Shown here piece by piece: positions 26,467 to 30,732 of a DNA stretch of 64,000 nucleotides. How positions within the stretch are numbered: position 1 is the stretch's first letter; the number at the start of each line of letters is the position of its first letter. Under the pieces are notes generated by a model. The model made no database searches, was not told the origin of the DNA, and saw only the letters and a program-made list of their open reading frames with translations. Source of the DNA: Patescibacteria group bacterium (GTDB lineage Bacteria > Patescibacteriota > Patescibacteriia > UBA11705 > DATKZF01); the NCBI GenBank assembly GCA_049319825.1, contig JBMORT010000009.1, positions 131,349 through 195,348 on the forward strand, given 5' to 3'. The translations under genes were made by a program, and so were the position numbers.

Positions 26467-27474
26467 ATGGAAAAACTGCTGATCTTTGATGCGGGCGCGC
26501 ATCCGGCGCTCTGTCAAACGATTTGTCAATTACTGGAGATCGAGCCCGGACAGGCGGAAGTTCTGGAATTTTCCAATGGCGATATCGCCAACAAGCTGTT
26601 GTCCGATGTGCGCGGTTCCGATTGTTTCGTTATTTCGACTCAAGCGCAGCCCGTGCAATTTCACATTCAAACCACCTTGTCGCTGGTAAAGAATCTGCGA
26701 ATTCATTCGGATGGGATGGTTAGATTGATTTGGGGTTACATGCCCGGAATTCGCAGCGATAAAGTGGATCAGCTGCGCATTTCTTTGGGCGCGCGCGACA
26801 TGGCCGATCAGATCACGGCGGCCGGAGCGCACGGAGTGGTCATTTTGGAACCGCACTTTCCACAAATCGTCGGTTTTTTCGATCAGCGATTGACACGCGT
26901 CGAACCGATCAAAACAGCTTCCATTTTTCTCAATGAAATAGTCAATTCCGGCAATTTCGATTTGAACAATTGCGTCGTGGTGGCCGCCGACCTTGGCAGC
27001 GCCAAACGGTCCGGCACCTTTGCCACCCGGCTGCACGTGGAATTGGCTTTTATCGACAAACGCCGCAACGGCAATACCGAAACGATCAAGCCGGTGGCGG
27101 TGATCGGGAACGTCAAGGGAAGAGATTGTCTGGTGCCGGATGATGAAATCTGCAGCGGCAGCACTTTTATCGAGGACGCCATCTTCCTTTTGGAAAACGG
27201 CGCCCGAACCGTCACCGGCTTTATGACGCACGCACCGCTGACCAATTTGGCGGCGTTGCGGAAAATCGAGGCGATTTCGGAAATTACCGGTTTGCATGTC
27301 ACTGATTCGATTCCGATTTCTCAGGAAAAGCAGGCGACTTGCTCAAAGCTGAGGATCCATTCGGTGGCGCCGCTATTGGCCGGGCTGATTCGCTGCGTTC
27401 ATGAGCGGCGATCGATACACGGTCCGCACGGATTTTTGCAGAGTCTTTACGATAAAAGACTGGTGAAAGGATAG
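26467..27474 (+). CDS. prs: Ribose-phosphate pyrophosphokinase (PRPP synthetase), divergent.
   Basis: 'LLIF...FSNGDIANKLLSDVRGSDCFVIST', 'IWGYMPGIRSDK', and PRPP loop 'VVVAADLGSAKRSGTFATRL...IDKRR'. Shine-Dalgarno-like GAGGGGGAGGG upstream of the ATG. Confidence 0.65.
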   Translation: MEKLLIFDAGAHPALCQTICQLLEIEPGQAEVLEFSNGDIANKLLSDVRGSDCFVISTQAQPVQFHIQTTLSLVKNLRIHSDGMVRLIWGYMPGIRSDKVDQLRISLGARDMADQITAAGAHGVVILEPHFPQIVGFFDQRLTRVEPIKTASIFLNEIVNSGNFDLNNCVVVAADLGSAKRSGTFATRLHVELAFIDKRRNGNTETIKPVAVIGNVKGRDCLVPDDEICSGSTFIEDAIFLLENGARTVTGFMTHAPLTNLAALRKIEAISEITGLHVTDSIPISQEKQATCSKLRIHSVAPLLAGLIRCVHERRSIHGPHGFLQSLYDKRLVKG

Positions 27475-27535
27475 TAAACATATTATCCTTTTTTATTAAC
27501 AGCCGAATAAAGAATAAATGTGGTATAATGACATC

Positions 27536-27688
27536 ATGGAAAATCAAAATCAAGGCAAGGCATTCAATGTGGTTGTCGTGATATTTATAATATTTATGAT
27601 CGCCTTGTTTGTGTATTTGATGAAAGCGAATTTGTCCAGCGATCGATATCAATTGCCCATGCCCGATTTATCCGAAACATCTAGATAA
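27536..27688 (+). CDS. 50-aa single-TM peptide, apparently leaderless (ATG 8 nt after an extended −10 'TGGTATAAT').
   Basis: Translation MENQNQGKAFNVVVVIFIIFMIALFVYLMKANLSSDRYQLPMPDLSETSR; promoter read directly. Confidence 0.3.
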   Translation: MENQNQGKAFNVVVVIFIIFMIALFVYLMKANLSSDRYQLPMPDLSETSR

Positions 27689-27701
27689 AAAAATAAAAAA
27701 T

Positions 27702-28550
27702 ATGGCAAAAATAAAAAGAAAAAATACCCGGCCCAAAATCAGTTTTTCCATGCTCTGGCAAAATTTGTTAACTTTCGCGATCGCTCAATTACTGGCGCTG
27801 GCCACGGCCATTCCGTTGCTTTCGGAAAAAGTCTACACCAGCTATTCCGCGCCCGTGCCCTGGTATTATTTTGTGGTGTCGCTGGCGATCGCCACCATGT
27901 TCGTGATATTGGCGATCAAGTATTTAAAAGGAGGCCGGTTTTTTGTTTTGGTCTTTTATTTTGTGATCGTACTGGGCGCCATGGAAGTTTTTGCCAATTA
28001 TATGACGACTGAATTGGCCATTGCCTGCGCTTTAATAATACTGGTGCTCAGAATAACCGCGCCCAGAATTTGGACTCATAATCTGGCGATAATAATGGGA
28101 TTGGCCGGAGTTTCGGCCTCGATCGGTTTGGACCTGATGCCGCTGGGTGTCGTGATAATTTTGGTGGTTCTGTCAATCTACGATTACATCGCCGTTTATA
28201 AAACCAAAACAATGGTAAAAATGTTTGAAGGCATGATGTCGCGAGGCGTTATTTTTTCCATTATTATTCCGCAGCACGCCAAAAATTGGTTTACCGATCT
28301 GAAAAAAGTGAAAAGAAATGAAGGCTTTATGTTTTTGGGCACCGGAGATATCGCGCTGCCCATGTTGTTTGCCGCCGCCTGCCTGAATATCAGCATGATC
28401 AGTGCCATTGCGGTGATCATCGGCGCGACTGTTGGTGTTCTGGCCATTCATTTATCGCTGGCAATCTCTGCCAAACGGGCTCCGATGCCAGCTTTGCCGC
28501 CGATCGCGCTGTTTTCAATTTTGGGATTTCTGATTTCCTTATATTTATAG
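27702..28550 (+). CDS. Presenilin / signal-peptide-peptidase family (peptidase A22) intramembrane aspartyl protease homologue.
   Basis: Polytopic protein with 'LSIYDYIAV' (YD), 'FLGTGDIALP' (GxGD) and C-terminal 'PALPPIA' (PAL), in the canonical order and spacing. Confidence 0.55.
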   Translation: MAKIKRKNTRPKISFSMLWQNLLTFAIAQLLALATAIPLLSEKVYTSYSAPVPWYYFVVSLAIATMFVILAIKYLKGGRFFVLVFYFVIVLGAMEVFANYMTTELAIACALIILVLRITAPRIWTHNLAIIMGLAGVSASIGLDLMPLGVVIILVVLSIYDYIAVYKTKTMVKMFEGMMSRGVIFSIIIPQHAKNWFTDLKKVKRNEGFMFLGTGDIALPMLFAAACLNISMISAIAVIIGATVGVLAIHLSLAISAKRAPMPALPPIALFSILGFLISLYL

Positions 28551-28628: not shown

Positions 28629-29522
28629 ATGTGGATTGTCGTCGCGGTTGTCGGTTACTTCTTTTTTTCCGTCACCGGATTGGTCGATAAATTAATTTTA
28701 TCTGAAGTAAAAAGACCGAGAGCTTACGCGGCAGTTGTCGGCATTTTGGGATTAACGGGCGTGTTATTGGCGATATTCGGATTTGAATGGCCGCGTCCCG
28801 AATTGTTGTTTTTATGCTTGATTGCCGGCGCTTTATACATTATCGGTCTGGTGCCTTTTTATAAAGCCATACAGCTCGGACAGCCCAGCAGAGTAATTTC
28901 TTTTTTCGGCGGATTACTGCCTGTTTTCGTGCTGATTATGAGCGTCTCTTCCGGGATTGAGTTTTTAAGGCCGCTCCAATATCTGGCTTTTTTCATCATC
29001 ATGATTGGCGGCTATTTGATCACCGTAGAGTCGAGACGTAAAAAATCGCCATACTCGGCCTACGCTTGGTCCGGCTTGGCGGCACTGCTGATAGCCGGTT
29101 TTTATTTTTTAAGCAAATATATTTTTTTACAAACTGATTTTCTTTCCGGTTTCGTATTAATGAGAATCGGCGGATTGGGGGGCAGTTTGATTTTATTATT
29201 TTATCCGGGCACTTTTCATGAAATCTACGCCGATCTAAAAGCCCAAAAAAGTAAACAGACTCAAAGAACCGGCGGTTTGGTTTTGATTTCTCAAATCAGC
29301 GCGGCGCTCGCGTTTATTTTAATCAATTACGCCGTATCCATCGGCAAAGTCAGCCTGGTCAACGCGCTAACCGGCACCCAATTTGTTTTTCTGCTGTTAT
29401 TGGCATCGTTTTTTTCAAAAAGATATCCCCAGCTCAAGGAATCAATCGATAAAAAAAATATTTTTCAAAAAATTTCGGCGATTGTATTGATTGCCATCGG
29501 CTTGGCGATATTGGTTTTATGA
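28629..29522 (+). CDS. 10-TM permease, possibly DMT/EamA-like.
   Basis: Two-fold hydrophobic repeat architecture. Confidence 0.4.
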   Translation: MWIVVAVVGYFFFSVTGLVDKLILSEVKRPRAYAAVVGILGLTGVLLAIFGFEWPRPELLFLCLIAGALYIIGLVPFYKAIQLGQPSRVISFFGGLLPVFVLIMSVSSGIEFLRPLQYLAFFIIMIGGYLITVESRRKKSPYSAYAWSGLAALLIAGFYFLSKYIFLQTDFLSGFVLMRIGGLGGSLILLFYPGTFHEIYADLKAQKSKQTQRTGGLVLISQISAALAFILINYAVSIGKVSLVNALTGTQFVFLLLLASFFSKRYPQLKESIDKKNIFQKISAIVLIAIGLAILVL

Positions 29523-30517
29523 TAAAAATAAAAAAAATCCTCATCTGGTCGACGCTGAGCATTTTAACGATAATTATAATTTTTTTAATTGCCTATTTAG
29601 CTATGCCGGCCAAAGAAAAAATTGAAAATCCCGTTTGGGGAGTTACGTTTACCCCCAGATTCGCCAAGGAGCTGGGAATTGATTGGCAAAAATCGTTTAT
29701 TTTAATGCTCGATGATCTTAATTTTCGCCATTTCAGATTGGCCGTTTATTGGGATGAAGTCGAATCGAAAAAGGGAACATTTGATTTCGGTGAATTGGAT
29801 TGGCTGATCAATGAGATAGAAAAAAGAAACGGATCGGTTATTTTGACGATTGGACGAAAGAATTTGCGCTGGCCCGAATGTTATCAACCGGCCTGGATAA
29901 AAGAGATGGCCGATGATCAAATCGAACAGCGTTTATATGAAATGATACGCGAAACAATCAATCATTTTAAAGATCGAAAATCAATTTACCTTTGGCAGGT
30001 GGAAAATGAACCGTTCTTCAGTTTTGGCGAGTGCCCGGCTCCCAAATCCAGGGTGATCGAAGCCGAAGTCGCGCTGGTGAGGAGCTTGGATAACCGCCCG
30101 ATAATGCTAACCGATTCCGGCGAGCTGAGTACCTGGCTTAAAACAATAAAATACCCCGATATTTTAGGCATCACCATGTATCGTGATGTTTCCAATCCAT
30201 GGACCGGCGATTTTCACTGGCCCAGTCCGGCCGGCTGGTATTCAAAGCGCGCCAAATTGGCGGAACGCCGGGTCGATAAGGTTATTGTGGCGGAATTGCA
30301 AATGGAACCTTGGTACAATCAGCCATTCACCAGTGTCGAGCCGGATGAACAGGCGGCCAAATTCAATATTGATAAAATGAAGGATAATATTGATTTCGCG
30401 AAAAAAGCCGGTTTTTCCGAATATTATTTGTGGGGAGCGGAGTGGTGGTTTTACATGGAAAAAAATGGTCATAACGAGTATTTGGAGCACATCAAGAGCC
30501 TCAATAAAAAACAATGA
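29519..30517 (+). CDS. Membrane-anchored glycoside hydrolase, clan GH-A (GH5-like).
   Basis: N-terminal TM. 'WQVENEPFF' (NEP acid/base motif), and a later Glu in 'VIVAELQMEPWY' as a candidate nucleophile. Confidence 0.5.
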   Translation: MIKIKKILIWSTLSILTIIIIFLIAYLAMPAKEKIENPVWGVTFTPRFAKELGIDWQKSFILMLDDLNFRHFRLAVYWDEVESKKGTFDFGELDWLINEIEKRNGSVILTIGRKNLRWPECYQPAWIKEMADDQIEQRLYEMIRETINHFKDRKSIYLWQVENEPFFSFGECPAPKSRVIEAEVALVRSLDNRPIMLTDSGELSTWLKTIKYPDILGITMYRDVSNPWTGDFHWPSPAGWYSKRAKLAERRVDKVIVAELQMEPWYNQPFTSVEPDEQAAKFNIDKMKDNIDFAKKAGFSEYYLWGAEWWFYMEKNGHNEYLEHIKSLNKKQ

Positions 30518-30576: not shown

Positions 30577-30732
30577 ATGCCAATATTCTCAAAAAAATGT
30601 GTAATTTGCGATAAAAAGGTCATAAAACCGATTAAAAAGCATGATCAATATTTCTGCAGTGAACGGTGTGTTTTGGCATTTGAAAAAAAGTTGAAGGAAT
30701 TGGAGGGGATGAATTTGGATAACTGCTGTTAA
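30577..30732 (+). CDS. Small TRASH/YHS-like metal-binding protein.
   Basis: 'CVICDKK...(16)...FCSERC' (C-x2-C-x16-C-x3-C). No clear Shine-Dalgarno sequence. Confidence 0.3.
   Translation: MPIFSKKCVICDKKVIKPIKKHDQYFCSERCVLAFEKKLKELEGMNLDNCC

Follow-up and report, generated by a model that had tools for sequence, protein, structure and literature searches.

Does this stretch of a Patescibacteria genome encode a genuine presenilin-type intramembrane protease, and what is the very small membrane protein whose gene lies directly in front of it? A sequence-only reading of the window (the whole 64,000-nucleotide stretch of DNA that was analysed) had pointed to a 282-aa polytopic protein carrying the YD, GxGD and PAL motifs of peptidase family A22 in the proper order, and to a 50-codon, single-transmembrane (TM) ORF immediately upstream of it, which was thought to be leaderless and a candidate substrate or partner of the protease. 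Both ORFs are present, with the motifs in that order and the small ORF in that place (Table 1). Alzheimer's disease research gives presenilin-type proteases a central place, and archaeal PSH provides their simplest structural model. The substrates on which prokaryotic PSH acts physiologically are unknown, as are the partners of archaeal PSH (PMC2947513), and the function of the Haloferax PSH orthologue is listed as 'Unknown' (PMC9263693).

Table 1. Features of the protease locus, with positions counted from the first nucleotide of the window.
Feature	Position	Strand	Remarks
Intrinsic-terminator-like hairpin and U-run	27465..27498	+	End of the upstream prs (PRPP synthetase) gene
Extended -10 element TGGTATAAT	27521-27529	+	6 nt upstream of the microprotein ATG (27536)
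Microprotein, 50 aa, single-pass membrane	27536..27688	+	Orthologues before PSH in ten loci
PSH-type protease, 282 aa	27702..28550	+	Presenilin/SPP family, MEROPS A22, Pfam PF06550, putative intramembrane aspartyl protease
Predicted catalytic D161 of the protease	codon 28182-28184	+	Within SIYDYIAV (Y160-D161)
Predicted catalytic D216 of the protease	codon 28347-28349	+	Within FLGTGDIALP (G213-T-G-D216)
PALP of the protease (P263-A-L-P266)	28488-28499	+	Within MPALPPIA
EamA/DMT-family 10-TM transporter	28629..29522	+	Pfam EamA, 33 bits; directly downstream of PSH
Membrane-anchored TIM-barrel glycoside-hydrolase-like (GH-like) protein	29519..30517	+	Weak GH10/GH42/GH5 Pfam matches

As judged from its sequence and its predicted structure, the 282-aa protein is a genuine member of the presenilin/SPP-type family (A22, PSH-type) with complete catalytic motifs. 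PF06550 was the only Pfam family to match it at E ≤ 1 (79.2 bits, with the cutoff at 23.9; E = 4.9e-22), with residues 25–280 aligned to profile positions 4–278 of 283, which upholds the A22 assignment; no transporter family and no presenilin proper (PF01080) appeared in Pfam at that threshold, the eukaryotic-type SPP profile PF04258 (A22B) was likewise unmatched, and A24 prepilin peptidases matched in neither Pfam nor NCBIfam. Among PDB sequences, the PSH entry 4hyc aligned with E = 2.6e-14, its YD and GxGD motifs coinciding with those of our protein (GMGD opposite GTGD), and the match to PSH is far beyond chance. Across 33 homologues of 33–66% identity, conservation is complete at Y160, D161, G213, G215, D216, L265 and P266 and reaches at least 90% at P263 and A264. 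The archaeal PSH equivalog of NCBIfam, NF041679, scored 80.2 bits, under its 125-bit cutoff; in sequence terms the protein is a family-level relative of the archaeal enzyme and not an equivalog. An identical protein in NCBI is already named 'presenilin family intramembrane aspartyl protease'. PADLOC gave no defence-system match for the protease, the microprotein, the EamA transporter or the GH-like protein.

The AlphaFold (AF2) model of the protease (pLDDT 90.5, pTM 0.89) has nine TM helices. D161 lies in helix 147–168 (TM6), GTGD stands at the start of helix 214–227 (TM7), into which a beta-strand (209–213) leads, and PALP directly precedes helix 265–281 (TM9). The topology that had been expected, nine TM helices of which TM6 carries YD and TM7 GxGD, is thus borne out in the model, where both Asp residues are placed within, and not outside, TM helices. 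Foldseek ranked 4hyg, 4hyc and 4y6k first in the PDB, followed by PS1 and SPPL2a, with a probability of 1.00, and every chain among the top 21 matches is PSH, PS1, PS2 or SPPL2a. Lys plus Arg counts are 6, 1, 1, 8 and 2 in alternate loops and 0, 0, 0 and 0 in the others; by the positive-inside rule the protease is N-in/C-out, with its basic N-tail and its TM6–TM7 loop predicted to be cytoplasmic, which is the presenilin orientation. The doubt that the protein might be no active protease at all, and instead some other polytopic protein (an A24 peptidase, a transporter or a pseudo-enzyme), draws on its score below the equivalog cutoff and on an activity that is only predicted. Profile and fold evidence together rule out the A24 and transporter identities, however, and with both catalytic Asp residues and the G, PAL and YD motif residues conserved as described, and a fold matching both PSH and PS1, this doubt is largely refuted and scarcely credible.

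Such a gene is not a rarity in bacteria. The sequence-only reading had called bacterial A22 examples sparse, a view that is outdated: we found 262 homologues of the protease, the named ones being mostly proteins from Patescibacteria MAGs, and the exact protein had been annotated before. PSH homologues are common in both Patescibacteria and DPANN MAGs, and therefore the family cannot be regarded as essentially one of archaea and eukaryotes. The host in question is a bacterium, with QueA, RlmN and sigma-70-type promoters encoded within the 64-kb window. Literature searches on presenilin homologues in Patescibacteria/CPR, on PF06550 and on IAP sequence-similarity networks returned nothing relevant.

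With the protease annotation already known from NCBI, what is new at this locus is the microprotein and its constant pairing with PSH. The conservation of its ORF marks it as a real gene under purifying selection. Orthologues of 40–50 aa lie directly upstream of the PSH gene in ten distinct loci (10/10), which answers in the affirmative whether the small ORF is conserved beside A22 homologues; M1, F10, K30 and P41-M42-P43 are invariant in their alignment, and dN/dS is 0.07–0.58 where synonymous sites are unsaturated. The protein consists of a short N-tail, a 19-residue TM segment rich in Ile, Val and Thr (47–68% of the segment across orthologues) and a K-x-N...[ILV]-P-M-P tail, and AF2 predicts a helix at residues 3–33 followed by a disordered tail. 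From the PMP to the stop codon there are 0 to 9 codons, and from the microprotein to PSH there are 4–70 nt or an overlap; at one locus (L005) nothing stands between PMP and the stop codon, and an alternative PSH start overlaps the ORF. In the window the gap to the PSH ATG is 13 nt, composed of A and U only, and contains neither structure nor a terminator. NCBI calls a 56-aa version of the protein (P0121) from an ATG at 27518, but we favour the start at 27536 because it agrees with the alignment of nine orthologues and because 27518 lies 5' of the -10 element. An antisense ORF of 117 aa (27299..27652) overlaps the conserved sense ORF and its promoter and was rejected as spurious.

The microprotein is confined to one narrow PSH subclade, within which the proteases are 56–71% identical. 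At about 50 more distant PSH loci the ORF is absent, and PSH therefore does not need it. With the window and 66 loci translated in all six frames, a motif regex recovered the microprotein at these ten loci only; a profile search of 1.84 billion proteins recovered the family itself and one marginal signal-anchor match (P0125); a word-indexed search found only the window microprotein when queried with it alone, and four called proteins when queried with the alignment; and a metagenome scan with a four-sequence alignment added one new locus (L065) and a duplicate of another (L060). The N-terminus of the microprotein resembles the signal anchor of P0125. Searches of Pfam, NCBIfam, PADLOC and the PDB gave no match for the microprotein, nor did the PDB hold anything similar to the basic peptide of another PSH clade. 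In the literature searched, this gene pairing was not found described for any PSH, and we regard the microprotein as previously undescribed. We also considered whether the microprotein might be a pilin of minimal size bearing a class III signal peptide, for which the criterion is [KR]-[GA] right before the hydrophobic stretch and usually Glu at +5, and rejected this: the -1 residue is Ala in the window copy only and Thr, Ile or Leu in the other orthologues, thus not Gly or Ala in most of them, and there is no Glu at +5.

The extended -10 element noted just before the microprotein ATG is likewise present, at a gap of 6 nt and not the ~8 nt first estimated. TGnTAnAAT occurs 6–12 nt before the ATG in eight of the ten loci, stands 56 nt away in L063 and is absent in L064. 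Since there is no -35 element at 16–18 nt, a generic promoter scan left the extended -10 unflagged. The published signature of bacterial leaderless genes is TANNNT about 12 bp from the start codon (PMC3160421); in the window, the first T of TATAAT (27524) is 12 bp before the ATG, and in both this spacing and its want of a Shine–Dalgarno (SD) motif the microprotein gene agrees with the sequence criterion of that study. Given the conserved element at 6–12 nt, the microprotein mRNA is probably leaderless or near-leaderless. Such starts are, by the sequence of the window, general in the host genome and not special to this gene, as is the absence of SD motifs: only five of the 52 genes (long ORFs) in the window have an SD-like motif, and several others have TGnTAnAAT 4–12 nt before their ATG. 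Upstream, the hairpin at the end of prs (12-bp stem at 27465–27492, dG -11.3 kcal/mol, z -3.2, followed by a U-run), to which a hairpin and T-run ahead of the promoter in L005 are comparable, would separate the microprotein–PSH unit from upstream transcription.

Downstream of PSH, the neighbourhood is stable. An EamA orthologue follows directly in all seven subclade loci whose sequence reaches that far, and EamA probably belongs to the same operon; the GH-like gene, with a 4-nt overlap between its start and the EamA stop, follows EamA in the window and in L001, L003 and L064. The block of EamA, GH-like, peroxiredoxin and QueA genes is syntenic within a narrow lineage. The gene 5' of the microprotein, on the other hand, varies (prs, a Zn-ribbon gene, an ABC-F gene, an uncharacterised ORF and others), and in several loci rearrangement breakpoints fall right upstream of the microprotein promoter, never between microprotein and PSH. 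Homologues of nicastrin, APH-1 and PEN-2 were sought among the genes around PSH (prs, EamA, GH-like, peroxiredoxin), and none was found.

What, then, does the microprotein do? The best explanation overall, which we consider likely, is that the locus encodes a complete PSH-type protease in a leaderless, microprotein-first transcription unit, and that the microprotein is a dedicated partner of this protease. From the conserved adjacency we infer that it may be a substrate or a partner of PSH. Between these, a modulator or pseudo-substrate is more likely than a cleaved substrate because the charge distribution (N-flank net positive, C-flank on average neutral to negative) favours N-in/C-out. This lean towards N-in, opposite to the orientation expected of substrates of a presenilin-oriented enzyme, depends on charge differences that are small, and in several orthologues, the window copy among them, it is ambiguous.

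The lean bears most directly on the idea that the microprotein is the native substrate, or pro-peptide, of PSH, which would cut the beta-branched-rich TM segment and free the ...F-x-[ILV]-PMP tail into the cytoplasm or the medium, perhaps with involvement of the neighbouring EamA exporter, by analogy with peptide signals made by intramembrane proteolysis. Much about the protein would suit such a role: its strict adjacency to PSH; extramembrane flanks so short that no prior shedding would be needed; a TM composition of the helix-labile kind that presenilin/SPP-class proteases are known to cleave; and an invariant tail motif, which suggests that the tail itself is functional. Presenilin takes type I and SPP type II substrates, however, and a presenilin-like N-in PSH would be expected to take N-out/C-in substrates; moreover, a substrate gene need not adjoin its protease gene, and the microprotein has no recognisable cleavage-site motif. 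We regard the pro-peptide role as unlikely. Could the microprotein instead be functionally unrelated to the protease, as merely the first gene of an operon conserved in a narrow lineage, or serve EamA and not PSH? Transporter-binding small membrane proteins are common, the EamA and GH-like genes are linked to the block no less tightly than the microprotein, its family is limited to the one subclade, and its adjacency to PSH could partly reflect shared ancestry since the whole block is syntenic. Nonetheless, the position of the breakpoints and the short or absent gap to PSH both speak for a tie between these two genes in particular, and the bystander explanation appears somewhat unlikely.

It has also to be asked whether the ORF acts as a regulatory leader peptide, with a ribosome stalled at Pro-Met-Pro controlling PSH translation. 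The invariant P-M-P near the stop codon, the SD-less PSH start 13 nt downstream and the overlap in L005 would be in keeping with this; against it, the distances from PMP to the stop codon and from there to the PSH ATG vary widely, SD absence is genome-wide, and the intergenic RNA is unstructured, so that stalling would have nothing to unmask. The TM segment is also under selection, and it would presumably still be in the exit tunnel at the stall, unable to serve as a force sensor. A leader peptide is thus very improbable, and a force-sensing arrest peptide was rejected on the same variable spacing, the unstructured intergenic RNA and a TM segment too near PMP to have left the tunnel.

Returning to the dedicated partner, its working might be as follows. 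The conserved extended -10 promoter would drive a unit with the leaderless microprotein first and PSH second, followed by the EamA and GH-like genes. By analogy with archaeal PSH, D161 in TM6 and D216 in TM7 would, within the bilayer and independently of cofactors, hydrolyse single-pass membrane proteins in their TM helix, and the microprotein would be a membrane partner docking its helix on PSH. Co-transcription, leaderless translation and action together with the protease are all parts that we infer. We put forward more tentatively, as possible and on the doubtful side, that here, for the first time, a prokaryotic PSH comes with a native ligand dedicated to it and encoded in the genome: the microprotein would be either a minimal natural substrate, cleaved to release the conserved ...F-x-[ILV]-PMP peptide, or else a helix that sits in the substrate path as pseudo-substrate or regulator. 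If so, the two genes would form a system for studying the recognition of a native TM helix by presenilin-type enzymes. The conserved gene pair offers a concrete and cheap route to the question of binding or cleavage; if the microprotein is unrelated, an ordinary, already-annotated family member remains.

Among known systems, archaeal PSH/MCMJR1 of Methanoculleus marisnigri (PDB 4HYG, 4HYC, 4Y6K; PF06550; NF041679) is the best sequence and fold match and belongs to the same Pfam family. Both proteins have about 280–300 aa without large loops, and in both (for our protease as predicted) there are nine TM helices, of which TM6 carries YD and TM7 GxGD, while a PAL-type motif precedes TM9. They share only about 20–23% identity, however, with a score of 80 bits against the equivalog cutoff of 125, and the window protease differs in its bacterial host and in the dedicated microprotein gene before it. 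The archaeal enzyme is active without cofactors (PMC2947513).

With human presenilin-1, gamma-secretase's catalytic subunit (PDB 6IYC, 8X52), the protease shares the fold (TM-score 0.62–0.70) and the three motifs, the PALP sequence being identical. The N-terminus and TM6–7 loop of PS1 are cytoplasmic, and the same orientation is predicted for the window protease. In contrast to PS1, it has no PF01080 match and a short TM6–7 loop without an obvious autoproteolysis segment, and its gene has no homologue of nicastrin, APH-1 or PEN-2 nearby. The GxGD aspartyl intramembrane protease fold is also common to SPP/SPPL2a (PF04258; PDB 9K92, 9K93), whereas PF04258 does not match our protein and the topology predicted here is the inverse of SPP, which is N-out/C-in. 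SPP takes substrates of the signal-anchor type with a very short C-terminal tail, and the microprotein resembles a free-standing signal anchor with such a tail. Intramembrane proteases that a small membrane protein controls or completes are known from BofA, which acts with SpoIVFB in Bacillus, and from PEN-2 in gamma-secretase, and these couplings of a very small membrane protein to an intramembrane protease may serve as a model for the microprotein as modulator. The likeness is not one of sequence (neither Pfam nor the PDB gave a match), and BofA acts on a metalloprotease, while PEN-2 consists of a re-entrant hairpin and a TM helix. Finally, the microprotein gene shares with leaderless bacterial genes (PMC3160421) a -10 box about 12 bp before the start codon, and the element is conserved in orthologous loci.

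The one new element at this locus is a microprotein family and its strict pairing with the gene for a presenilin/SPP homologue (PSH), a pairing whose functional role is putative; the protease itself is already annotated and ordinary for its phylum. The identical NCBI protein (P0001) is named 'MAG: presenilin family intramembrane aspartyl protease [Patescibacteria group bacterium]', and a word-indexed search returned 262 homologues at E ≤ 0.001, nearly all with PF06550, the named ones mostly from Patescibacteria, Parcubacteria, Falkowbacteria or Pacebacteria MAGs. Among GTDB species representatives, 54 PSH loci were detected, in Patescibacteria lineages and DPANN archaea (Woese-, Pace-, Undin- and Nanoarchaeia). 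The sequence-only reading's description of bacterial A22 proteases as sparse thus no longer holds for the candidate phyla radiation (CPR); 'poorly studied' stands, and a literature search found no paper on bacterial A22 homologues of CPR.

The organism is bacterial, as the RlmN, MsrA, QueA and sigma-70-type −10 elements of the window show. In a rough neighbour-joining tree, its PSH subclade adjoins a Falkowbacteria/Patescibacteria group, and the DPANN proteins (L012, L013, L015, L018, L019, L022, L028, L034, L036, L037, L041, L043, L047, L057, L058) form a single cluster nested among several CPR clades, with 35–42% identity to CPR proteins. This nesting suggests that the gene passed between the two groups, both of them small episymbionts. 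Some CPR homologues (L014, L031 and the 455-aa P0083) are longer, with long extra N- or C-terminal regions that give architectures beyond the nine-TM core.

On sequence and modelled fold, the window PSH is a member of PF06550/A22, with every testable defining feature at those levels. The motifs SIYDYIAV (Y160-D161), FLGTGDIALP (G213-x-G-D216) and MPALPPIA (P263-A-L-P266) follow one another in the order first read from the sequence; among 33 aligned homologues (33–66% identity to the window PSH), Y160, D161, G213, G215, D216, L265 and P266 are invariant, and P263 and A264 are conserved in at least 90%. The sole Pfam match at E ≤ 1 is PF06550 ('Signal-peptide peptidase, presenilin aspartyl protease'; score 79.2 bits, gathering cutoff 23.9, residues 25–280); neither A24 nor a transporter family, the alternatives named in the sequence-only reading, was assigned. 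The sole NCBIfam match, NF041679 (archaeal presenilin homologue PSH), scores 80 bits, short of the equivalog cutoff of 125. One solved structure was matched by sequence, Methanoculleus marisnigri PSH (4hyc, E = 2.6e-14), with both Asp motifs aligned. As had been expected of the topology, an AlphaFold2 model from the 33-homologue alignment (pLDDT 90.5, pTM 0.89) has nine long TM helices with both aspartates inside them: D161 lies within helix 147–168, GTGD where beta-strand 209–213 meets helix 214–227, and PALP directly before the last helix (265–281). Foldseek against the PDB ranked PSH chains first, then presenilin-1 (gamma-secretase) and SPPL2a, all with probability 1.00 and TM-scores of 0.6–0.7, and gave no other fold match better than E ~3. 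The A22 interpretation is therefore supported, and the observation behind it confirmed.

The small ORF upstream was found as described, and it proved to be conserved. ORFs of 39–45 codons lie directly 5' of the PSH gene in all seven contigs of the closest homologues (L001, L003, L005, L060, L061, L062, L063; 56–71% identity to the window PSH), and searches with the microprotein itself added L064 and L065, making ten distinct loci with the window. The consensus is MKEKTF-(19 hydrophobic residues, 47–68% Ile/Val/Thr)-K-[AS]-N-L-N-S-D-x-F-x-[ILV]-P-M-P-x-x, with no substitution at M1, F10, K30 or P41-M42-P43 (window numbering). Of 41 aligned codon columns, 39 vary at the third position and 24 at the second, and pairwise dN/dS, for pairs with unsaturated synonymous sites, is 0.07–0.58, so purifying selection acts on the reading frame. 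AlphaFold gives a single helix (residues 3–33) with a disordered tail.

Pfam, NCBIfam, PADLOC and PDB contain nothing that matches the family, and when 1.84 billion representative proteins were searched with its profile, nothing beyond it was returned except one marginal match, to the signal anchor at the N-terminus of an unrelated protein of 261 aa. Matches to a motif regular expression in six-frame translations of 66 loci and the window were confined to these ORFs, and no such ORF precedes about 50 more distant CPR and DPANN PSH genes: the microprotein arose within one narrow PSH subclade. GenBank labels its members 'hypothetical'. NCBI's 56-aa version begins at ATG 27518, upstream of the extended −10, a start unsupported by the orthologues. 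The tripeptide PMP of the microprotein tail also precedes PAL(P) in PSH (APMPALPP, residues 260–262), which, with just three residues, may be chance.

In another CPR clade, PSH is likewise preceded by a conserved ORF, encoding an extremely basic peptide of ~40 aa (MKK[HY]SSKKC[ST]K.KTG[YF]RTPSVF...) with no Pfam or PDB match; the end of this ORF usually overlaps the PSH start or falls within a few nt of it. Two PSH clades are thus preceded by a small gene, a different one in each.

Coordinates of features in the window and in homologous loci (Lnnn, on other contigs)
Feature	Position	Strand	Remark
TTATTAACA(G/A) motif	27497-27506		
Extended −10, TGGTATAAT	27521-27529	+	6 nt before microprotein ATG 27536
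Microprotein ORF	27536..27688	+	50 codons; ends 13 nt 5' of PSH ORF
PMP, microprotein	27656-27664		
PSH ORF	27702..28550	+	282 aa
PMP, PSH	28479-28487		
GH-like protein	29519-30517	+	
51-52-aa ORF	window 30577-30732; L001 7690-7848; L003 6826-6981; L064 7632-7787		
Basic-peptide ORF	L010 2842-2967; L011 2891-3016; L021 2340-2465; L026 2855-2977; L050 2708-2875; L052 2883-3008		
Longer PSH homologues	L014 2455-3876; L031 1221-2465		473 aa; 414 aa

The extended −10 noted in the sequence-only reading is present before the microprotein gene, although the spacing to the ATG is shorter than the ~8 nt stated there. TGnTAnAAT lies 6–12 nt before the ATG in eight of the ten loci; in L063 the distance is 56 nt, and in L064 no such element can be recognised. 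A promoter scan found no −35 at normal spacing from the window element. A TANNNT box ~12 bp before the start codon is the published signature of leaderless bacterial genes (PMC3160421), and TATAAT begins exactly 12 bp before the microprotein ATG, which fits the earlier prediction that this gene would be leaderless. Leaderless initiation looks like the rule in the window organism rather than a peculiarity of this gene, judging from its sequence: an SD-like motif precedes only five of 52 long ORFs, and TGnTAnAAT occurs 4–12 nt before the ATG of other genes (e.g. 10872, 23244, 58948 on the minus strand, and the 33031 region), several of them operon-first. Upstream of the microprotein promoter, five of the ten loci (the window, L061, L062, L063, L065) share TTATTAACA(G/A), 21–23 nt from the −10 hexamer, a distance too great for an ordinary −35; a regulator site or an UP-like element is possible.

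The gene 5' of the microprotein varies: L001 and L062 share prs with the window, L003 has a Zn-ribbon gene, L005, L061 and probably L063 have an ABC-F ATPase gene, and L064 and L065 have others. The microprotein–PSH junction is unbroken in all loci. A 12-bp hairpin and then a U-run close the window prs (dG −11.3 kcal/mol, z −3.2), L005 has a similar hairpin, and the gap between microprotein and PSH is A/U only and unstructured, with no terminator; the two genes are likely co-transcribed.

Further 3', an EamA-family transporter gene comes after PSH in each of the seven subclade loci with enough sequence, and a GH-like gene comes next in each of the four that reach further. The product of the latter, a membrane-anchored TIM-barrel protein whose gene overlaps the end of EamA by 4 nt in the window, has weak GH10/GH42/GH5 similarity and possibly represents an uncharacterised glycosidase family. 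Between the GH-like or DUF389 gene and a peroxiredoxin gene lies a conserved 51-52-aa ORF, Cys-rich in the window, with a weak, sub-threshold treble-clef/YacG-like Pfam match (E = 7e-4). The contigs of L001/L002/L006 and L003 are syntenic with the window over PSH, EamA, GH-like and peroxiredoxin genes, extending to prs in the former and to QueA in L003. Public labels are Bipolaricaulota for L003 (JGI Ga0307380_10000027), 'uncultured Gammaproteobacteria' for L002/L006 (CAYPKD010000004.1) and Patescibacteria for the window; at least two must therefore be wrong.

Presenilin and SPP have opposite, established orientations. Lys+Arg counts in successive loops of the window PSH alternate (6/0/1/0/1/0/8/0/2), which places the basic N-tail and the TM6–TM7 loop in the cytoplasm and the C-terminus outside. 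From the homology with archaeal PSH and presenilin, D161 and D216 are expected to activate water for cleavage of the unwound TM helix of a laterally entering single-pass protein; archaeal PSH does so without cofactors (PMC2947513; PMC7248309). That the microprotein is itself such a substrate seems unlikely. It is almost without an ectodomain and its helix is rich in beta-branched residues, as is typical of substrates of this protease class, but an enzyme oriented like presenilin is expected, by established rule, to act on N-out/C-in helices. The microprotein N-flank (MKEK) is net positive, the C-flank on average neutral and net negative in three orthologues, and the N-terminus resembles an ordinary N-in signal anchor; the resulting lean towards N-in/C-out, which argues against productive cleavage, rests on small charge differences, is ambiguous in the window copy, and is the only evidence obtained that discriminates between readings.

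On this orientation evidence we read the microprotein as a membrane partner dedicated to PSH, a modulator or pseudo-substrate being likelier than a substrate that is cleaved; by analogy with BofA and SpoIVFB, or with PEN-2, such a role is a tentative possibility. It is rather doubtful that the microprotein is a bystander that serves EamA or is simply the first gene of the operon. That it is a leader peptide is highly improbable.

The microprotein family and its pairing with PSH were absent from all libraries searched, and the conserved microprotein offers an inexpensive way to test what prokaryotic presenilin homologues act on. Compared with known systems, the window protease falls below the NCBIfam threshold for an equivalog of archaeal PSH and lies outside presenilin proper (PF01080) and SPP proper (PF04258), while its orientation, as predicted from charges, is the same as that of presenilin and the inverse of that of SPP.
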